A DNA stretch of 12,733 bases from a virus. The DNA lies in the UHGV virus genome UHGV-0125529; one strand, written 5' to 3'. This document shows positions 2,718 to 12,017 of this stretch, piece after piece. The position numbers and the translations under genes are program-made. How positions within the stretch are numbered: the stretch's first letter is position 1; the number at the start of each line of letters is the position of its first letter. Below the pieces are notes generated by a model. The model made no database searches. It was not told the origin of the DNA and saw only the letters and a program-made list of their open reading frames with translations.

Positions 2718-3425
2718 TCACGAACTTTTCAGCCACTCCCTTGCCTCGATGTCATCCAGATGGCGAGATTGCTTCAGAATACCAGCCACATACTCCACCT
2801 TTGCTACTTGATGATAAGGCAACGTTATTGGCCTGTGGTCTTGGTTGATGCTTGTAAATTGGTATTCTCCATCTCTGTCATAGCCAAGAACCTTAATCAT
2901 GTTGTGTCCTTCAACGGTTCTGACAAACACCTCATCACCCGGGAATACTTTGGTGTTAGGCTCAATGAGTACATATTCTCCTGATTTTATTCTGGGCCAC
3001 ATGCTGTCTCCTTTCACACGAAGGCCAAAGGCATCTGGATCATCGCTATAAATTTTGAGCCACCCATCGCGCTCTTCGGTCATCTCGATGGCACCATCAA
3101 CACCAAGAATTGCCTCACCAACCACGCGCACTAACCCTTTTTTTAATTTGCCAACAAATGAAAGAGTATCTTCATCATTCGCTCCATTTAACGAAGTGCC
3201 GTGCTGAAGCCAAACAACATCAACGTTTAGAAATTTCGCAAGCGCATTCATTTTTTCCTGACGCGGTAAAGACTCAGCATTAAACCATTTGCTAACGCCT
3301 TTGGACGAAAGAGAAAGGGCACGGGCTATAGCCATTCCCCTACCATGTTCATCAAGACCAGCTTCTTTACAGGCTTGCGCTAGCCGCTGGGCGAATTCTT
3401 TGCGCACTTTTTCATTCTGAACCAT
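2718..3425 (-). CDS. cI: CI-like prophage repressor (N-terminal HTH, C-terminal S24/LexA-type peptidase domain)
   Basis: 235 aa; N-terminal HTH (GMAIARALSLSSKGVSKW); C-terminal VKGDSMWP motif typical of the S24 peptidase catalytic serine with a downstream lysine; divergent from the cro-like gene across a 78-bp operator region. Confidence 0.85.
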   Translation of the reverse strand: MVQNEKVRKEFAQRLAQACKEAGLDEHGRGMAIARALSLSSKGVSKWFNAESLPRQEKMNALAKFLNVDVVWLQHGTSLNGANDEDTLSFVGKLKKGLVRVVGEAILGVDGAIEMTEERDGWLKIYSDDPDAFGLRVKGDSMWPRIKSGEYVLIEPNTKVFPGDEVFVRTVEGHNMIKVLGYDRDGEYQFTSINQDHRPITLPYHQVAKVEYVAGILKQSRHLDDIEAREWLKSS

Positions 3426-3489
3426 GAGTACGATACTAAAGCACTTGCAAAAACTTTCAGTTCAATCATAATGCGTACTGAAAGTACGA
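3424..3489. promoter_or_regulatory. OR operator cluster: three palindromic sites about 24 bp apart
   Basis: Sites AGTACGATACT (3427-3437), AACTTTCAGTT (3451-3461) and the perfect 15-bp palindrome CGTACTGAAAGTACG (3474-3488); centres near 3432, 3456 and 3481. Located between the divergent cI and cro starts, the classic OR3-OR2-OR1 layout. Confidence 0.5.
3445..3472 (+). promoter_or_regulatory. Candidate PR promoter
   Basis: -35 TTGCAA (3445-3450), 16-bp spacer, -10 CATAAT (3467-3472); the predicted start site falls on the perfect palindrome at 3474-3488. Confidence 0.5.
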
Positions 3490-3503
3490 AAAAGGATATC
3501 CCT

Positions 3504-3731
3504 ATGCAAAATCTTGATGAGCCGATTAAAGGTGTCGGCATCCCTGAAGTTGCGAAGGCTTGTGGAGTTAGCGAAAGGGCTGTCTATAAGTGGCTCAAAA
3601 ACGGCTTCCTCCCTAAGACTGAGTTTTTTGGGAAAACGAAATACGCATCAAAAATCGAAGAGATTTCTGGTGGCAAATATCAAGCAAGCGAAATGCTTGA
3701 AATAAGCAAAAAGAACCTTCTGGCTGCATAA
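3504..3731 (+). CDS. cro: Cro-like HTH DNA-binding protein
   Basis: 75 aa from ATG 3504 (MQNLDEPIKG...), RBS AAAGGA 7 nt upstream; HTH segment IPEVAKACGVSERAVYKWLKNG. The in-frame ATG at 3471 lies inside the predicted PR -10 and is probably not used. Confidence 0.7.
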   Translation: MQNLDEPIKGVGIPEVAKACGVSERAVYKWLKNGFLPKTEFFGKTKYASKIEEISGGKYQASEMLEISKKNLLAA

Positions 3732-3869: not shown

Positions 3870-4166
3870 ATGACACAAACAAGTTACAGCAAACTATCCC
3901 AGCGCGACGTTGATCGCGCAGAAACGGATTTACTCATCAACCTGTCAACGCTTACCCAGCGCGGTCTGGCAAAGATGATTGGCTGTCATGAATCGAAGAT
4001 AAGCAGAACGGACTGGAGATTTATTGCTTCGGTCCTGTGTGCTTTCGGAATGGCATCAGACATCAGTCCGATTAGCAGGGCTTTTAAGTATGCGCTTGAT
4101 GGAATCACCAATAAAAAACGCCCGGCGGCAACCGAGCGTTCTGATCAAATACAAATGGAATTTTAA
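3870..4166 (+). CDS. cII: CII transcriptional activator
   Basis: 98 aa; C-terminus ...ITNKKRPAATERSDQIQMEF is almost identical to the lambda CII C-terminus as I remember it (...TNKKRPAATERSEQIQMEF); weak RBS, as in lambda cII. Confidence 0.85.
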   Translation: MTQTSYSKLSQRDVDRAETDLLINLSTLTQRGLAKMIGCHESKISRTDWRFIASVLCAFGMASDISPISRAFKYALDGITNKKRPAATERSDQIQMEF

Positions 4167-4188
4167 CAACATCCAACGAGGTAATTAT

Positions 4189-4332
4189 ATGCGAAAAACG
4201 CAGGAAAATAAACGCGTTAATCACCGAAAAGATGTGCTACGTGACCAGTTTTATCAGGGAGTTAATCCAGCAATAGCTGTGCCACTGAGAGAAATACTTA
4301 ACAGGTACAAAACTTCGGAGAAGTCAAAATGA
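4189..4332 (+). CDS. Small basic hypothetical protein (47 aa) translationally coupled to the initiator gene
   Basis: ATG at 4189 with RBS GAGG 7 nt upstream; its TGA stop overlaps the ATG of the next gene (ATGA at 4329-4332). Product MRKTQENKRVNHRKDVLRDQFYQGVNPAIAVPLREILNRYKTSEKSK. No homolog recognised. Confidence 0.4.
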   Translation: MRKTQENKRVNHRKDVLRDQFYQGVNPAIAVPLREILNRYKTSEKSK

Positions 4333-5126
4333 GCATGAATCTTATGGCTAAGGCCATGAATATAAAGGTTGGCAACCCACTGAGAAAACTGGTTCTGATT
4401 AAACTTGCCGATAACGCCAATGATAATGGCGAATGCTGGCCTTCATATCAACATGTCGCTGACCAGTGTGAGGTGAGCAGATCGACAGTAAAAAGTCACA
4501 TTAGGGCACTGGAAGAGATGGGTCTTTTGAAAAGGGAATGCAGAAGAAAAGGAGAGCTTAACCAGTCAAACGTTTTTTATCTGACGCTGGATAATGCACA
4601 ACAAATCCCACCAGAATCAGGTGGGGCAGGAGCTGCCCGGGGTGGGTCAGGAGCTGCCCGGGGTGGGGCAGGAGCTGCCCTAGGGGGTGGGGCAGGAGCT
4701 GCCCCCAGAACCTATCACTCTTTTGAACCAGTCAATGAACCTAAAAACATTATGTTCGAACATGTCCGAACGGAGTGGGAAAAAACTCCTGACCGTCACG
4801 AAGAAACCGACAAGGCATTCGAGGAAATATTCTGGTGTGCAGGCATGCGGAAAGCCGGGAAGAAAAACGCAGCTTCAGCATTCAGAACACAGTTCAGGGA
4901 ATGGCGTAAAACTACCAGGGGTACGGCAAGCGAGTTTGCCACGATGCTGGCAGAAGACATCGCATGCAGGAATGGTAAGCAGTTCGGATTCGACAGGTTG
5001 TTACCATCGAGCTACCTGAACGGTCAACGCTGGAACGACGAGAAGCCAGAAACTATTCAACCACAATCCAAACCATCATCCGCAATCACCGTATCGAAAA
5101 CTGGCTACGTGTTTTTCGACAGGTGA
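4329..5126 (+). CDS. Replication initiator, lambda O-like in organisation (iteron-containing)
   Basis: 265 aa, RBS GGAGAAG upstream; N-terminal winged-helix/HTH-like region (...YQHVADQCEVSRSTVKSHIRALEEMGLLKRE); the iteron array lies inside the coding region and encodes a Gly/Ala-rich linker, as ori-lambda does within O. Confidence 0.75.
   Translation: MSMNLMAKAMNIKVGNPLRKLVLIKLADNANDNGECWPSYQHVADQCEVSRSTVKSHIRALEEMGLLKRECRRKGELNQSNVFYLTLDNAQQIPPESGGAGAARGGSGAARGGAGAALGGGAGAAPRTYHSFEPVNEPKNIMFEHVRTEWEKTPDRHEETDKAFEEIFWCAGMRKAGKKNAASAFRTQFREWRKTTRGTASEFATMLAEDIACRNGKQFGFDRLLPSSYLNGQRWNDEKPETIQPQSKPSSAITVSKTGYVFFDR
4620..4704. repeat. Four direct iterons, each with an internal palindrome (candidate replication origin)
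   Basis: Units GGTGGGGCAGGAGCTGCCC at 4620-4638, 4641-4659 (one substitution, GGGTCAG), 4662-4680 and 4686-4704; period 21, 21 and 24 bp; each contains GGGCAG-GAG-CTGCCC; followed by a more AT-rich stretch. Confidence 0.8.
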
Positions 5127-5236
5127 ACCATGAAATCCAGAATCAAATCGTTACTTATCGCTGGCTATAACCATGGCTGGCTTAGTTCTGCATTCGTTGA
5201 GTTCTGGTTTAACCGTCTCGATCTGAGGTCAGCGTA

Positions 5237-7117
5237 ATGACTCCAAGTGAACTGAGCGACCTGCTTTGGGCGCAGGTTGACAGGGTGGCTCCGCACCTGT
5301 TGCCAAACGGCAAGAAAGAGGGGCATGAGTGGGTTGCCGGTAACGTTAACGGTGACAAGGGAAACAGCCTTAAGGTCAACCTTAGCGGCAAGAAAAAATG
5401 GGCTGATTTCGCTGAGGGAGACGGCGGTGACATGCTTGATTTGTGGATGGCATGTCGTGGAATTAACCTGCATCAGGCTATGCAGGAAGCGAAAGCATTT
5501 CTCGGTATCAAGGATGACGATCACCATTTCGATGCCAGACGTGAGAAGAAATTCTCCAGACCTGATCGCAAGAAAATCGCCAGTTACGTTACCAGAACAG
5601 AATCCCATCTTGAGTACCTGCAATCGCGTGGCATATCGCCAGAAGTCGTAAAGCGCTACGAGGTTGTCAGCGGCAAGGTGTGGAATGGAGAGCGGGAACT
5701 GGATGCTCTGGTGCTTCCGTACAAACGCGATGGTGAGTTGTTGCAGGTCAAGCGAATCAGCACTGAGCGCCCGGACGGGAAGAAAGTCATTATGGCAGAA
5801 GGTGATTGCGAACCTTGTCTGTTCGGATGGCAGGCTCTGGACGCTGGCGTGAGGGCGGTTGTACTTTGCGAAGGCGAAATTGATTGTATGAGCTATGCGC
5901 AATACGGCATCTCGGCGTTATCCGTGCCGTTTGGTGGCGGGAAAGGCGCTAAGCAGCAGTGGATTGAGTTTGAGTATCACAACCTCGACAGGTTTGAGGA
6001 AATATTCATCTCGATGGATGTTGATGATGTTGGTCGTGAAGCCGCAAGGGAAATCGCAAGCCGACTCGGTGAACATCGTTGCCGTCTTGTTACTCTGCCG
6101 TACAAAGACATCAACGAATGCCTGATGAACGGTGTTACCGAGGATGAAATCTGGCAGTACATCGGCACGGCATCCTACTTCGATCCTGAAGAACTCTACA
6201 GCGCGCGAGAGTTTTACCAGGACACTATCAACGCTTTCTACGGCAAGCAGCAGTATCTGTTTAATCCACCGTGGGAATCTCTGGCAGATAAATTCCAGTT
6301 CCGTGAGGCCGAGTTGACGCTGGTCAATGGTGTGAACGGTCACGGAAAAACGGAGGTTGTCGGGCATATGGCACTTGAGGCAATGCGTCAGGGTGTGAAG
6401 ACGTGCATCGCGTCACTTGAGCTGAAGCCTGGTATTCTCCTTAAGCGCCTTACCCGTCAGGCGACGTGCTGCAAGATGCCGCCAGTGCTGGAAATTGACT
6501 CTGCATTTAAATTTTATGACGAAAGACTTTGGGTGTTTGGCCTGACCGGAACGGCGAAAGCCGACAGGCTGATCGAAATATTCGACTACGCTCGCCGCCG
6601 ATACGGTATCCAGTTATTCATCATCGACAGCCTGATGAAATGTGGCATAGGCGACGATGACTATAACGGGCAGAAGGCGTTTGTTGACTCGATTTGCGAC
6701 TTCAAAAACAAAACAAACTCCCACGTCATTCTCGTTACTCACTCGCGAAAAGGAGACAGCGAAGAAAAACCAACCGGGAAAATGGACGTAAAAGGCTCTG
6801 GAGCGATAACAGACCTGACAGACAACCTTTTTATCATCTGGCGTAACAAGGCTCGCGAGAGAGCGTTACAGAGAGTTCAAAGCGGTGAACAGATGTCAGA
6901 GAAGGACGAACAGCTACTGGTGTCTCCGGCATCTGTTTTGTTGCTTGAAAAACAACGTAACGGTGAAGGTTGGGAAGGTGGTATCCCGTTGTTCCTTGAC
7001 GAGCAATCGCACCAGTTCCTGCAACTTGAATCAGGATCTCCATATAGCTACATCGCCAATATGCCGAAATCGGAATATGACGAGGCGTGGAGACAGGAAA
7101 ACGTGACGGAGTATTAA
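5237..7117 (+). CDS. Bifunctional DNA primase/helicase, T7 gp4-like (TOPRIM primase plus DnaB/RecA-fold helicase)
   Basis: 626 aa. TOPRIM-region motifs align with T7 gp4 as I remember it (EGEIDCMS; FISMDVDDVGREAA; LPYKDINECLMNG). Helicase part has Walker A GVNGHGKT, IIDSL (Walker B-like) and later motifs (ILVTHSRKG; KGSGAITDLTDNLFIIWRN). The N-terminal region lacks the Cys4 zinc finger. Confidence 0.9.
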   Translation: MTPSELSDLLWAQVDRVAPHLLPNGKKEGHEWVAGNVNGDKGNSLKVNLSGKKKWADFAEGDGGDMLDLWMACRGINLHQAMQEAKAFLGIKDDDHHFDARREKKFSRPDRKKIASYVTRTESHLEYLQSRGISPEVVKRYEVVSGKVWNGERELDALVLPYKRDGELLQVKRISTERPDGKKVIMAEGDCEPCLFGWQALDAGVRAVVLCEGEIDCMSYAQYGISALSVPFGGGKGAKQQWIEFEYHNLDRFEEIFISMDVDDVGREAAREIASRLGEHRCRLVTLPYKDINECLMNGVTEDEIWQYIGTASYFDPEELYSAREFYQDTINAFYGKQQYLFNPPWESLADKFQFREAELTLVNGVNGHGKTEVVGHMALEAMRQGVKTCIASLELKPGILLKRLTRQATCCKMPPVLEIDSAFKFYDERLWVFGLTGTAKADRLIEIFDYARRRYGIQLFIIDSLMKCGIGDDDYNGQKAFVDSICDFKNKTNSHVILVTHSRKGDSEEKPTGKMDVKGSGAITDLTDNLFIIWRNKARERALQRVQSGEQMSEKDEQLLVSPASVLLLEKQRNGEGWEGGIPLFLDEQSHQFLQLESGSPYSYIANMPKSEYDEAWRQENVTEY

Positions 7118-7146
7118 ATGACCATCTACATCACTGAGCTTGTAAC

Positions 7147-7178
7147 AGGCCTGCTGGTAATCGCAGGCCTTTTTATTT
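7147..7178 (+). terminator. Rho-independent terminator after the replication genes (tR2-like position)
   Basis: Hairpin AGGCCTGC(7147-7154)/GCAGGCCT(7163-7170) with an 8-nt loop, followed by TTTTATTT. Confidence 0.55.
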
Positions 7179-7206
7179 GGGGAAGAGTAATTGGAGGCTT
7201 TAAGAA

Positions 7207-7422
7207 ATGAGTACGATAGCTGAGCTTGTCAGGGCTAATTTTCGTGAAGAGTTGGTGCGTTGGTATCGGTATCGTTCATCGTCCAGTTTGCCGCTTGATG
7301 AGTTGTATGAGCATTCACCTGCCGCACGACGCTATCCGCGTGACCGTGTTCTTCGACGGTTGTTCAAACTCAACAATGAGTTTCAGCGCAACAGAATTAT
7401 CCGGAGTCTGGATTTAAAGTGA
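7207..7422 (+). CDS. Hypothetical nin-region protein (71 aa)
   Basis: ATG at 7207 with RBS GGAGG about 9 nt upstream; no family recognised. Confidence 0.5.
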   Translation: MSTIAELVRANFREELVRWYRYRSSSSLPLDELYEHSPAARRYPRDRVLRRLFKLNNEFQRNRIIRSLDLK

Positions 7423-7615: not shown

Positions 7616-8012
7616 ACTAAGAAGCCCCATCCATCAGCAGAACGCCATTCAAGCTATCCAGCAAATTCTTCCAGACCCAACCAAACCAATCGTAGTAACC
7701 ATTCAGGAACGCAACCGCAGCATTCGGCAAAATGCACGCCTTCACGCGATGCTATCTGAAATAAGTAAGAAGGCTACATATCATGGAAAAGCAAGAAATA
7801 TTGAGTTTTGGAAGGGGTTATTCGTTTCTGGTTGGCAGATTGCAACCAACCAGCACCCTGAGATTATATCAGGGTTAGAAGGTGAGCTAATAAACATCAG
7901 AGAGAGTACGGCGACTCTATCTGTAAAAAAAATATCCGAAATAATGGACTACATAGAAGCATATTGTGCCATGAACTCAATTAATCTTAGCGAATGGAGG
8001 AATTATGATTGA
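7596..8012 (+). CDS. ninB: NinB (Orf-family recombination protein)
   Basis: 138 aa from ATG 7596 (MRKLTFELRSPIHQQNAIQAIQQILPDPTKPIVVTIQERNRS...), closely matching my recollection of the lambda NinB N-terminus; the track ORF has a spurious N-terminal extension from 7515. Confidence 0.85.
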   Translation: MRKLTFELRSPIHQQNAIQAIQQILPDPTKPIVVTIQERNRSIRQNARLHAMLSEISKKATYHGKARNIEFWKGLFVSGWQIATNQHPEIISGLEGELINIRESTATLSVKKISEIMDYIEAYCAMNSINLSEWRNYD

Positions 8013-8607
8013 GGTTTGGGTAGATATCGAAGGAATTCCATTTTATCAGGTTAGCAATAAAGGAAATTTCAGGTCTATTACGAGGGAAATTACAGTAACA
8101 TCAACCAGACAGAGGCCATATAAGAAAATAATTAATGGCACTAGCGTAAAACCATTCAAGTGCAAGTCGACAGGATATCTTCAAATAAAGGTATACGGTA
8201 AGAAATACAGCACCCACAGGATAGTTGCGAAAGCATTCTGTACAGGGTTCTGTGATGGCTTGGTAGTTAATCACAAAAATGGGCAAAGAGATGACAATAG
8301 GGCTGAAAACCTTGAATGGGTATCACATTCTGAAAACTCAAAGCACGGATATAAACAAAATGGAAGAATACCTATATCGCTAGGTAAATTTAGTGGTGAT
8401 CATCCTGCCAGTAAAGCTGTTATTTCTACTGACATGAAAACTGGGGAGGAGGTTTATTATGAAGCAGCTATGGATGCTGTCAGAGAAGGATTTGATAGTT
8501 CGTCAATTAGTCGTTGCTGTAATGGCGAAAGCTCATATCACAAAGGAAGATTCTGGCGATTTGCAAATGAAACAATGAAAGCAAGATGGGGAGACAGGGC
8601 GGCATGA
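8005..8607 (+). CDS. HNH homing endonuclease (NUMOD4-like N-terminal motif, HNH core, C-terminal DNA-binding region)
   Basis: 200 aa; RBS GGAGG 4 nt before the ATG; N-terminal [20 protein letters not shown] (NUMOD4-like); HNH core HRIVAKAF...[25 protein letters not shown]; overlaps the ninB stop by 8 nt. Confidence 0.85.
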
Positions 8608-11360: not shown

Positions 11361-11879
11361 ATGGGCATAAGAGAACTAAACCTCACCAAAGAACAGCACG
11401 ATTGGCTGAATGGCTGGCTTGAACTGTGGGGCGCATGGGTTTATTCAGGTCGTCTGGAAAAGCGCATGAGCAGCGTAATAGCGAAGTTCATGGAGAGCGT
11501 AGAGCCGGGAAGAGTTATGACAAGACCAATGTGTAATGATGATGATGGAATGTTGATTTCTCAGGTCGTCGATTCCGTCATGTACATTGACAAGAAAGCC
11601 TTTGGCATCCTCCTCAGCTACTACGCTCATGGTTCATCTAAGAGAGCAATTGCATCCTACTATCACGCGACTGCAAAGCCACGCAAGATGTGTGGACGCG
11701 GTGGCGAGGGATGGAGAAAACCTTCACTGGCAACCTGTAGAAACGAAATTGACGATATCCTGAAAGCGTCATTATTTGTTTTGTACCAACCAATGCAAAA
11801 TGCTTTCAAAATGCGTAAACGTGTTGAGAAAGTTAAGCATGTTGCTGTTAAAAGCCTTGACATGCAATTAGCCATTTAG
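11361..11879 (+). CDS. Q: Late-gene antiterminator Q (phage 82 / QuuD-like family)
   Basis: 172 aa, RBS GGGAGAAG; motifs WGAW near the N-terminus and RPMCNDDDGMLISQVVD resemble the Q family found in phage 82 and E. coli QuuD; sits after ninG and before a strong promoter, as Q does in lambdoid phages. Confidence 0.8.
   Translation: MGIRELNLTKEQHDWLNGWLELWGAWVYSGRLEKRMSSVIAKFMESVEPGRVMTRPMCNDDDGMLISQVVDSVMYIDKKAFGILLSYYAHGSSKRAIASYYHATAKPRKMCGRGGEGWRKPSLATCRNEIDDILKASLFVLYQPMQNAFKMRKRVEKVKHVAVKSLDMQLAI
11847..11876 (+). promoter_or_regulatory. Candidate late promoter PR' (Q-utilisation region)
   Basis: Perfect -35 TTGACA (11847-11852), 18-bp spacer, -10 CATAAT (11871-11876), overlapping the 3' end of Q. 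Confidence 0.5.
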
Positions 11880-11942: not shown

Positions 11943-12017
11943 GGGTCAGTCGTATAAAGGTCATTACGGAAGGCTGTTAACCTTCTTATCGTGGTTCGAT
12001 TCCCGCTACCCGCTCCA
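11943..12017 (+). tRNA. tRNA-like element, probably degenerate (Asn-type GUU anticodon arm)
   Basis: Perfect anticodon stem-loop GAAGG-CTGTTAA-CCTTC (11969-11985; U33, anticodon GTT, A37); D-arm-like CGTA-N10-TACG (11951-11968); T-loop consensus GGTTCGATTCC (11993-12003) followed at canonical distance by CCA (12015-12017). The T-stem and acceptor stem pair poorly, so it may be a pseudo-tRNA. Confidence 0.3.

Follow-up and report, generated by a model that had tools for sequence, protein, structure and literature searches.

How does a lambda-like prophage start its DNA replication when the gene downstream of its O-like initiator encodes a primase-helicase instead of a helicase loader? The question is raised by positions 4189-7117 of a viral genome sequence of 12,733 nucleotides (UHGV-0125529; the whole stretch is referred to as the window). 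We consider it highly probable that this region is the replication unit of a lambda-like Escherichia coli prophage, in which an origin-binding initiator is combined with a T7-type primase-helicase, replacing the helicase loader of lambda. The arrangement is real, but it has already been catalogued in Shiga-toxin (Stx) and Salmonella phages, so that the locus adds no new kind of system. The comparative data instead provide elements that can be tested, namely a 56-bp origin core, a candidate recruitment tail, a 35-aa gene and a zinc-less primase domain, and Stx2a phages are among the carriers of this replication type.

The order of the genes, with cII followed by a helix-turn-helix (HTH) initiator and a TOPRIM primase-helicase, is that of the Eru5/ES18-type lambdoid module, and phi24B and Min27, two Stx-converting phages of known sequence, contain the same module, which speaks for its functionality. 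The open reading frames between 5126 and 7117 are a 35-aa gene (orf35) and the primase-helicase gene, and neither product matched PF06992 (Phage_lambda_P) or PF01695 (IstB/DnaC-like) in a Pfam search. An oop-like terminator was identified via alignment to lambda. No Rfam family matched within the region, and a promoter scan returned 5 sites against 4.1 in shuffled sequence; as the sites were no commoner than in shuffled sequence, we claim no promoter within the module. The pairing of an iteron-bearing initiator with a gp4-like primase-helicase, which had been proposed from the sequence alone (hereafter the sequence-only reading), was borne out by the domain, family and repeat analyses described below.

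The initiator gene (4329..5126, + strand; 265 aa) begins at the same start codon as in RefSeq. Its product is composed of an N-terminal winged helix, a Gly/Ala linker encoded by the iterons, a helical C-domain, a Pro/Ser/Gln linker and a conserved tail. Pfam assigned a winged helix-turn-helix to aa 17-67 (4377..4529, + strand), which is presumed to bind the iterons; HTH_36 matched with 52.1 bits (E 5.6e-14), HTH_24 also matched, and DnaD_N did so weakly. PHROGs 4617, 270, 8540 and 391, labelled 'replication initiation (O-like)', matched the protein as well, while the Phage_rep_O profile did not at E<0.01, and BLASTP against lambda O gave an E of 0.3, i.e., no detectable sequence similarity. 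The earlier description of the initiator as O-like thus stands for the architecture, HTH_36 and the O-like PHROGs, but does not extend to the sequence: judged by these searches, the protein is analogous to lambda O in its architecture, with no homology detectable at the sequence level. A deep protein search with the initiator listed only near-identical matches differing in iteron number, and the AlphaFold2 model of the protein, built from an alignment of 11 sequences with 98% identity, was unusable (pLDDT 36.6).

The repeats lie at nucleotides 292-376 of the 798-nt initiator gene, in its mid-gene, linker-coding part. TRF detected a period-21 array of 3.9 copies (4620-4704, score 136), and repeat finding together with a core count divided the array (4620-4705, no strand assigned) into four units of 21-24 bp at 4620-4640, 4641-4661, 4662-4685 and 4686-4705, of which the starts are spaced by 21, 21 and 24 bp. 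The iteron core GGGGCAGGAGCTGCCC occurred four times in the window with three or fewer mismatches, against 0.07 expected, and was found nowhere else. The 17 bp of the core, GGGGCAGGAGCTGCCCC, carry 7-bp inverted arms, GGGGCAG and CTGCCCC, which flank GAG; since the core differs from its own reverse complement by three mismatches, the palindrome is imperfect. With this qualification, the four palindromic iterons that the sequence-only reading placed inside the initiator gene are confirmed. The last iteron and the 36-bp element next to it make up a conserved origin core (4686-4741, no strand assigned), in which the 36-bp element holds two GAACC(A/T)(G/A)TCA repeats. A mosaic joint is situated just 3' of the origin core, at about 4742, the position at which homology to Sf101 and mEp043 starts. 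To the right of the iterons, the composition profile showed a stretch of lower GC content (4706-4771, no strand assigned), moderately AT-rich at 0.33-0.45 versus 0.78 in the array, and TRF found a 10-bp tandem repeat, two copies of ATGTCCGAAC, at 4752-4771. By its likeness to ori-lambda, this stretch is a candidate unwinding region, albeit the drop in GC is milder here than in the AT-rich region of lambda.

Such a repeat could be merely a Gly/Ala-rich, low-complexity linker changing its length via slippage, with the true origin located elsewhere. All four copies in the window indeed share one reading frame and encode GGAGAAR-type heptads, and near-identical genes hold anywhere from 1 to 9 copies, as in a VNTR. 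Nevertheless, in three relatives (L140, L113 and L135), one and the same gene contains the identical 17-bp core in two codon phases, encoding GGAGAAP in one phase and VGQELP in the other. Across 13 distant loci, third-codon identity amounted to 0.83-1.0 in the 56-bp origin core versus 0.38-0.48 in the N-terminal coding sequence; synonymous positions are thus near-invariant in the last iteron and the following 36 bp, while the remainder of the gene is saturated. In addition, every unit has dyad symmetry, and where an unrelated N-terminal domain is joined to the same C-half, it comes with palindromic repeats of another kind in that position. We therefore regard the slippage explanation as very improbable, and these sequence comparisons indicate that the iteron is constrained as DNA. 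The concern that the repeat might turn out to be a mere protein-coding feature, which had been named in advance as a possible refutation, is contradicted by both the two-frame reading and the third-codon identity. As for the copy number, many IMG/VR contigs break inside the iteron array, and we considered assembly collapse as the source of the IMG/VR counts of four or fewer. The polymorphism is real, as proteins encoded on multi-megabase NCBI contigs have 4-9 copies; the single-copy versions are uncertain.

The downstream gene (5237..7117, + strand) encodes a bifunctional primase-helicase of 626 aa of the gp4/Twinkle type. It matched phrog_239 ('DNA primase/helicase') with an E of 1e-170, and the Pfam search returned Toprim_2 (E 3e-12), AAA_25 (27.9 bits) and, under the cut-off of 27, DnaB_C (22.8 bits). 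Among PDB sequences, phmmer retrieved T7 gp4 (5ikn, 6n7i and 1q57; E 1e-21 to 1e-23, the best match being given as 3e-23) and then Twinkle (8e2l, E 7e-14), and the best Foldseek matches of the predicted model (pLDDT 70) were Twinkle (7t8c, E 4e-22) and T7 gp4 (5ikn, E 5e-21). The TOPRIM catalytic core recognised by Toprim_2 (aa 209-296; 5861..6124, + strand) contains the acidic residues in CEGEID (211-216), DVDD (261-264) and KDINE (290-294), which align with EGEID, DMDE and KDANE of gp4 and are invariant in the homologue alignments. The SF4 RecA-type helicase domain, delimited by Pfam and the gp4 alignment (aa 355-578; 6299..6970, + strand), carries motifs H1, H1a, H2, H3 and H4 and an arginine finger aligned with those of gp4: the Walker A sequence GVNGHGKT (nt 6329-6352), E395, the Walker B residue D464, H502, the KGSGA block and R574, the last being aligned to what we take to be R522 in the T7 numbering. 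The domain search, Toprim_2, AAA_25 and the gp4 motif alignment together uphold the proposal of a TOPRIM primase fused to a gp4-like helicase.

The same protein had been called zinc-finger-less, which is correct but does not say everything. The four zinc ligands are replaced, at positions that we presume to be G35, N38, D57 and E60 from a manual alignment to E. coli DnaG, and no Cys4 pattern was found in 22 homologues of 34-99% identity. The description is incomplete, however, as aa 26-92 (5312..5512, + strand) still match the CHC2 Zn-ribbon profile of DnaG weakly (Zn_ribbon_DnaG; E 0.063, below threshold), suggesting a zinc-less relic of the primase Zn-ribbon domain. This N-terminal block is conserved across the same 22 homologues, and in the model aa 26-64 form beta strands, with helices after them. 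Template-directed priming by T7 gp4 depends on its Zn domain; in metazoan Twinkle, the N-terminal region is zinc-less and primase activity is absent. The phage protein could be a helicase only, its TOPRIM domain having degenerated or kept just a structural role like that of metazoan Twinkle, with lagging-strand primers still supplied by host DnaG. The replacement of all four Zn-ribbon ligands across the family speaks for this possibility, as does the best whole-length Foldseek match being human Twinkle, which is without primase activity, and gp4 deprived of its Zn domain makes no template-directed primers. On the other hand, the TOPRIM acidic residues (E in CEGEID, DxD and D in KDxNE) are conserved in homologues down to 34% identity, and the zinc-less N-terminal domain is strongly conserved as well (LLPxG..EW..G...G..G.SL.V...G...W.DF..G..GDLLDLW). 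Both kinds of conservation argue for retained function, and we consider a helicase-only protein unlikely.

Two small genes accompany the initiator and the primase-helicase. The basic 47-aa gene orf47 (4189..4332, + strand; phrog_1913, E 5e-22), already proposed to be coupled to the initiator from upstream, is a genuine gene: the encoded protein is basic (net charge ~+7), the TGA stop shares bases with the ATG of the initiator (ATGA), and a pN/pS of 0.16-0.30 with homologues of 80-91% identity indicates purifying selection. Homologues were found in only 17 phage records, in which they are unannotated or called hypothetical. The second gene, orf35 (5130..5237, + strand; phrog_21848, E 2e-28; MKSRIKSLLIAGYNHGWLS..FV..WF), which lies between the initiator and the primase-helicase, was missed in the sequence-only reading. 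It is a conserved gene, present in most Enterobacterales loci (47-100% identity) with a pN/pS of 0.2-0.6 and a pS of up to 1.0, and its stop overlaps the start of the primase-helicase gene (TAATG).

Beside the sequence features, domain identities, DNA-level origin constraint, linkage patterns and purifying selection, all of which the analysis has shown, we propose the following mechanism. Rightward early transcription from the cro side would express four genes together in tight coupling, namely those for orf47, the initiator, orf35 and the primase-helicase. The N-terminal winged-helix domain of the initiator would bind the four dyad-symmetric iterons within the stretch of its own gene that encodes the linker, and this binding would destabilise the conserved, lower-GC 36-bp element just right of the iterons. 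The C-terminal end of the initiator, most likely the tail AITVSKTGYVFFDR (aa 252-265; 5082..5123, + strand), would then recruit the phage's hexameric primase-helicase of the gp4/Twinkle type, which would supply fork unwinding and probably priming. If the phage enzyme does so, host DnaB, DnaC and a P-type loader should be dispensable for initiation, and DnaG perhaps as well. The binding of the iterons, the melting of the DNA, recruitment through the tail, activity as a primase and the independence from host DnaB and DnaG are all predictions from the sequence.

The tail was singled out by motif conservation as a putative partner-recruiting peptide. The C-terminal half of the initiator is followed by the primase-helicase in 80 of 80 IMG/VR loci (78 complete and two cut by contig ends), in about half of which both the N-terminal domain and the iterons are different. 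Conversely, close N-terminal homologues with the same iterons are elsewhere joined to lambda-P-like, DnaC-like or DnaB-like genes; the term 'module swap' used in the earlier reading is thus literally true. Initiators whose C-domains are of at least three unrelated kinds retain the tail motif where the primase-helicase comes next, and the motif was seen in 27 of 58 distinct tails partnered with a primase-helicase versus 0 of 40 others, an association that was defined post hoc and may be due in part to physical linkage with the gene downstream. It is attractive, if tentative, to read these patterns jointly as a code, to which we give slightly less than even chances: a short C-terminal peptide beyond a variable linker would specify the helicase or loader to be recruited, three parts, namely the DNA-binding domain plus origin, the globular C-domain and the tail, would be shuffled independently of one another, and the orf35 product would be an accessory for loading the primase-helicase. 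Under such a code, a TVSKTGYVFF-type tail or a terminal ..G[VA][IL]-COOH may stand for gp4-like primase-helicases, an xN[ST]xxW-type tail for lambda-P-like loaders, and other motifs for DnaC-like loaders. One P-type tail reads PHWNSPEGWEDFL. If the tail-by-partner pattern holds, it would explain how lambdoid phages swap helicase systems at a single recombination joint with the coupling between initiator and helicase kept.

Alternatively, the tail may track the partner merely through its adjacency to downstream genes and translation signals, i.e., as an artefact of the recombination joint, and the globular C-domain or orf35 may make the real contact. orf35 takes its ribosome-binding site from the last codons of the initiator, GAC AGG TGA, in P-partnered genes the tail and the P start overlap by 3-18 nt, and few independent domain swaps were seen (L109, L165, L170, L179 and L184), all of which this explanation would accommodate. 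It is less easily reconciled with the purifying selection on the tail, of which the 12-residue core is kept as protein while synonymous sites have diverged (pooled pS 0.63, pN 0.17), or with the variable Pro/Ser/Gln linker preceding the core, which is the usual layout of a short linear motif. Furthermore, primase-helicase-linked initiators outside Enterobacterales, with at least six types of C-domain, share the other terminal motif, ..G[VA][IL]-COOH. We hence judge the joint artefact to be somewhat unlikely, and recruitment by the tail is the reading followed here. A strict form of it, in which orf35 is the obligatory target of the tail, was rejected, as two loci (L174 and L189) keep the tail with no detectable orf35.

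The plan of the locus resembles that of lambda in several respects. In ori-lambda, four dyad-symmetric iterons of ~19 bp are likewise located mid-gene between a DNA-binding N-domain and a partner-binding C-domain, with a spacing of 20, 24 and 23 versus 21, 21 and 24 here; the order of cII, O and partner is the same, and the oop terminator is conserved too. In lambda, however, the initiator recruits a P:DnaB complex, P being the loader of host DnaB, whereas the window encodes a self-contained primase-helicase and has two extra small genes, orf47 and orf35. T7 gp4 and mitochondrial Twinkle share with the window protein the domain order (N-terminal ribbon, TOPRIM, linker and SF4 helicase) and the catalytic motifs, and they are its best sequence and fold matches among solved structures, yet at ~20% identity. 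The zinc ligands are lost here as in metazoan Twinkle, unlike in gp4. T7 initiates from transcription-primed origins; the window protein, in contrast, would be brought to a fixed origin by a separate initiator that binds iterons.

Among lambdoid phages, P22 likewise combines an iteron-bearing initiator with a replicative helicase of its own in place of a loader (gp18/gp12; PMC8022706). P22 gp12 is a DnaB-type helicase with no primase domain that works with host DnaG (Wickner 1984, cited in PMC8022706), while the helicase here is of the gp4 type and fused to a TOPRIM primase. In ES18, epsilon34, g341c, Sf101 and mEp043, the 'O plus primase-helicase' module has the same initiator C-half, orf35 and primase-helicase, with 87-97% DNA identity from 4742 on. 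Modules of the ES18/epsilon34/Sf101 type differ from the window in the N-terminal DNA-binding domain and the iterons: the N-terminus of epsilon34 gp50 is of the lambda-O type (PMC2629481), and Sf101/mEp043-type loci have TGTCACCAAAACGGTGACA repeats instead of the window iterons.

The closest relatives are the Eru5 Stx phages. Eru5 is defined by an HTH protein and a primase beside cI, with Stx2a_F403 as the reference phage, and the same source states that no information exists on the replication proteins of the Eru types (PMC8951638). Stx2a_F403, phi24B, Min27 and phiXuzhou21 share ~98% nucleotide identity with the window over cII, orf47, the initiator, orf35 and the primase-helicase; positions 3870-7200 aligned to Stx2a_F403, phi24B and Min27 over 100% of their length with 97.8% identity, and the annotations agree. 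phi24B has three iterons and an O of 258 aa, compared with the four iterons of the window. The Eru5 Stx phages also carry a 342-aa LAGLIDADG intein in the Walker A motif of the primase-helicase (968 aa), at a site corresponding to the junction between K371 and T372 (nt 6349|6350), and the window represents the intein-free allele. About 40% of complete E. coli genomes match part of the region.

Database comparison confirmed the pairing, noticed in the sequence-only reading, of an iteron-bearing initiator (265 aa, ORF 4329-5126) with a primase-helicase, and its interpretation is supported. The 626-aa product of ORF 5237-7117 carries Toprim_2, AAA_25 and, below threshold, DnaB_C, and matches phrog_239 'DNA primase/helicase' with an E-value of 1e-170. 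Among all PDB sequences its best match was T7 gp4 (E 3e-23, from TOPRIM through helicase motif H4), followed by Twinkle; for an AlphaFold2 model (pLDDT 70), Foldseek ranked Twinkle and gp4 first and also found the zinc-binding and RNA-polymerase domains of Aquifex DnaG. With the helicase motifs aligned to gp4 (Walker A GVNGHGKT, E395, D464, H502 and R574), the claim of a TOPRIM primase fused to a gp4-like helicase stands.

Residues 26-92 of the enzyme resemble the CHC2 ribbon of DnaG only weakly (E 0.063); in a manual alignment with E. coli DnaG, the four ligand positions correspond to G35, N38, D57 and E60. No Cys4 pattern was seen in 22 homologs with identities down to 34%, in agreement with the description as zinc-finger-less, and the ribbon-like domain itself is well conserved in them. 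The main live alternative is that the enzyme is a helicase only and priming is still performed by host DnaG, which we regard as unlikely; the TOPRIM acidic residues align with those of gp4. The zinc-less enzyme would probably be active as a primase, and replication may be independent of host DnaB, DnaC and DnaG. In phi24B, Min27, Stx2a phages and some 10 loci of IMG/VR (e.g., L001, 2845-5751), the same primase-helicase is split by an intein of 342 aa, with Pfam matches to Hint and LAGLIDADG_3, that begins with ACPL and ends with THN ahead of Thr. The insertion site falls between 6349 and 6350 of the window and separates K371 from T372 in Walker A; the window has the intein-free allele, an empty homing site.

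Tandem Repeats Finder detected a period-21 array at 4620-4704 (3.9 copies, score 136), and a repeat search gave four iteron copies starting at 4620, 4641, 4662 and 4686. At three or fewer mismatches, the core GGGGCAGGAGCTGCCC matched four times in the window, where chance would give 0.07, and had no match beyond the iterons. As GGGGCAGGAGCTGCCC differs from its own reverse complement by 3 mismatches, each iteron is a palindrome, albeit imperfect, with 7-bp arms around GAG, and the four palindromic iterons proposed within the initiator gene are thus borne out. The array occupies nucleotides 292-376 of the 798-nt ORF, comparable to the lambda O gene (900 nt), in which four iterons lie at nucleotides 349-433 with spacings of 20, 24 and 23. 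The initiator begins with a winged helix (52 bits for HTH_36; cut-off 25) and was assigned to PHROG families whose annotation reads replication initiation or O-like. Pairwise comparison with lambda O found no similarity, and the Pfam search no Phage_rep_O match; therefore, 'O-like' holds for the architecture and not for membership in the lambda O family. The N-terminal domain would bind the iterons, and the lower-GC element (GC 0.33-0.45) is a candidate for melting. The 10-mer AACCAGTCAA occurs at 4726-4735, in the conserved element right of the iterons, and once more at 4560-4569, 50 bp to their left, so that one short sequence flanks the array on both sides.

All four iterons of the window share a reading frame and are translated into GGAGAAR-like heptads, which raised the possibility that the repeat is merely a protein-coding feature. 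Nevertheless, in relatives with N-terminal domains 69-87% identical to that of the window's initiator, the identical 17-bp core is read in two codon phases inside single genes (2,2,2,0,0 in locus L140; 0,2,2,0,0 in L113; 0,2,0,0 in L135), yielding the peptides VGQELP and GGAGAAP. Across 36 distinct sequences, 4686-4741, comprising the last iteron and the next 36 bp with two GAACC(A/T)(G/A)TCA repeats, is almost invariant in nucleotides, and similarity ends sharply right after 4741. In 13 loci, third codon positions match those of the window at 0.83-1.0 within this 56-nt core but at only 0.38-0.48 within the N-terminal coding region. These findings show that the DNA itself is constrained. Iteron number is polymorphic, with 4-9 copies in NCBI E. 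coli and Salmonella proteins encoded on megabase contigs and 1-6 in IMG/VR contigs, where low numbers, including single-iteron versions, need caution because contig ends in the array indicate that the repeat breaks short-read assemblies. Metagenomic viral contigs often terminate exactly inside the array (L086-L088, L103, L108, L011, L026, L027, L033, L035, L036, L039 and L077). In locus L096 (same contig as L037, IMGVR_UViG_2537561977_000031), a 398-aa ORF on the opposite strand (4364-5560) lies within the array and truncates the initiator gene, whose two halves are ~1.5 kb apart; its N-terminal sequence, inspected by eye, suggests an IS110-family transposase.

The C-terminal 131 residues of the initiator retrieved 80 IMG/VR loci (78 complete, 2 cut by contig ends), all 80 of which carry orf35, a 35-aa gene, and the primase-helicase downstream. 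In approximately half of them the N-terminal domain is unrelated to that of the window, lambda-O-like, and accompanied by its own palindromic repeats, TGTCACCAAAACGGTGACA. Conversely, a search with the N-terminal domain gave loci (69-87% identity) whose C-terminal regions differ and whose next genes encode lambda-P-like proteins (PF06992), DnaC/IstB-like AAA+ loaders or DnaB-like helicases. These reciprocal swaps indicate that the DNA-binding domain with the origin and the C-terminal part with the partner are separate exchange units, as the lambda paradigm, in which the N-domain binds the origin and the C-domain the partner, predicts. The joint lies just right of the origin core.

We surveyed initiator tails in 55 loci, with primase-helicase identities of 34-99%, on contigs limited to one genome per species. 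In Enterobacterales, initiators encoded ahead of the primase-helicase finish with [TQ][VIA][ST]x[STN]G[YL]V[FY][FIYL], e.g., AITVSKTGYVFFDR, despite different globular C-domain types ('DWxRALNTWLRNA' in L109, L165 and L184; 'PKNWF..LSAKLKYQN' in L170 and L179), whereas the same types ahead of a P-like gene have PHWNSPEGWEDFL-like tails instead. The former motif occurs in 27/58 distinct primase-helicase-linked tails versus 0/40 others, and an xN[ST]xxW-type tail in 19 of the 22 P-linked tails versus none of the 58. A ..G[VA][IL]-COOH ending is common to non-enterobacterial primase-helicase-linked initiators with at least six C-domain types. The tail core, preceded by a variable Pro/Ser/Gln linker, is conserved as protein with diverged synonymous sites (pS 0.63, pN 0.17). 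The tail might be a partner-recruiting peptide, a reading we hold with slightly more doubt than confidence, the pattern being post hoc and physical linkage possibly contributing.

The replication module is already known and widespread. Positions 3870-7200 are, over the full length, 97.8% identical to the Stx2 phages Stx2a_F403, Stx2a_F451, phi24B, Min27 and phiXuzhou21, and from 4742 on 87-97% identical to Sf101, mEp043, epsilon34, g341c and others. At least 80% of this region is found in 140 complete E. coli genomes, and some part in 2239/5426. In the phi24B record, O and P are the names given to the two genes, and a 'Gp4D helicase region' is mentioned. The published 'Eru5' replication type, an HTH protein plus a primase, has Stx2a_F403 as its reference phage, and according to the same work nothing is known of the replication of Eru-type modules (PMC8951638); epsilon34 gp50 joins a lambda-type N-terminal domain to an ES18-type remainder (PMC2629481). 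The comparative details given here have no precedent in the literature searched, and provide direct experimental handles on the module.

The basic 47-aa ORF noted upstream (orf47, 4189-4332) indeed overlaps the initiator start as ATGA, and orf35 (5130-5237), absent from the sequence-only reading, overlaps the primase-helicase start as TAATG. Both are under purifying selection: pN/pS is about 0.2-0.5, and synonymous sites have diverged as far as saturation. In Candidatus Symbiopectobacterium (L193, 2597-3466), the ORF of the initiator continues in frame into orf35 (...RRLLKRLLVSGYNHGVLCEGLVT), representing either a natural fusion or a frameshift/pseudogene in an endosymbiont genome.

The window comprises the immunity and early-right genes of a lambdoid (pro)phage: those for an N-like antiterminator (762-1211) and a cI-like repressor (2718-3425), both on the minus strand, a cro-like gene (3471-3731) and cII (3870-4166; Phage_CII, E 1.5e-33), after which come the replication genes and a nin region encoding NinB, an HNH endonuclease, Ant and NinG. 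The region's strongest terminator-like hairpin (minus strand, 4115-4142) lies inside the 3' end of cII and is the terminator of the lambda oop antisense RNA, with ~42 nt shared exactly with lambda; a minus-strand TATAAT at 4184-4189 overlaps the orf47 start codon, and an oop-like RNA therefore probably starts there. Directly 3' of the primase-helicase gene, another strong hairpin (7147-7170, plus strand; 8 pairs, 6 GC, T-run) lies within a small, hydrophobic, NinA-like 30-aa ORF (7118-7210), in a position analogous to lambda tR2. The HNH endonuclease gene (8005-8607, plus strand; phrog_59, E 5e-38), directly 3' of NinB, is probably a mobile insertion. ARAGORN found no tRNA in the window; an Rfam tRNA match barely above threshold (11943-12012, plus strand; 32.6 bits versus 29), located 3' of ORF 11361-11879, is possibly a degenerate tRNA-like element.
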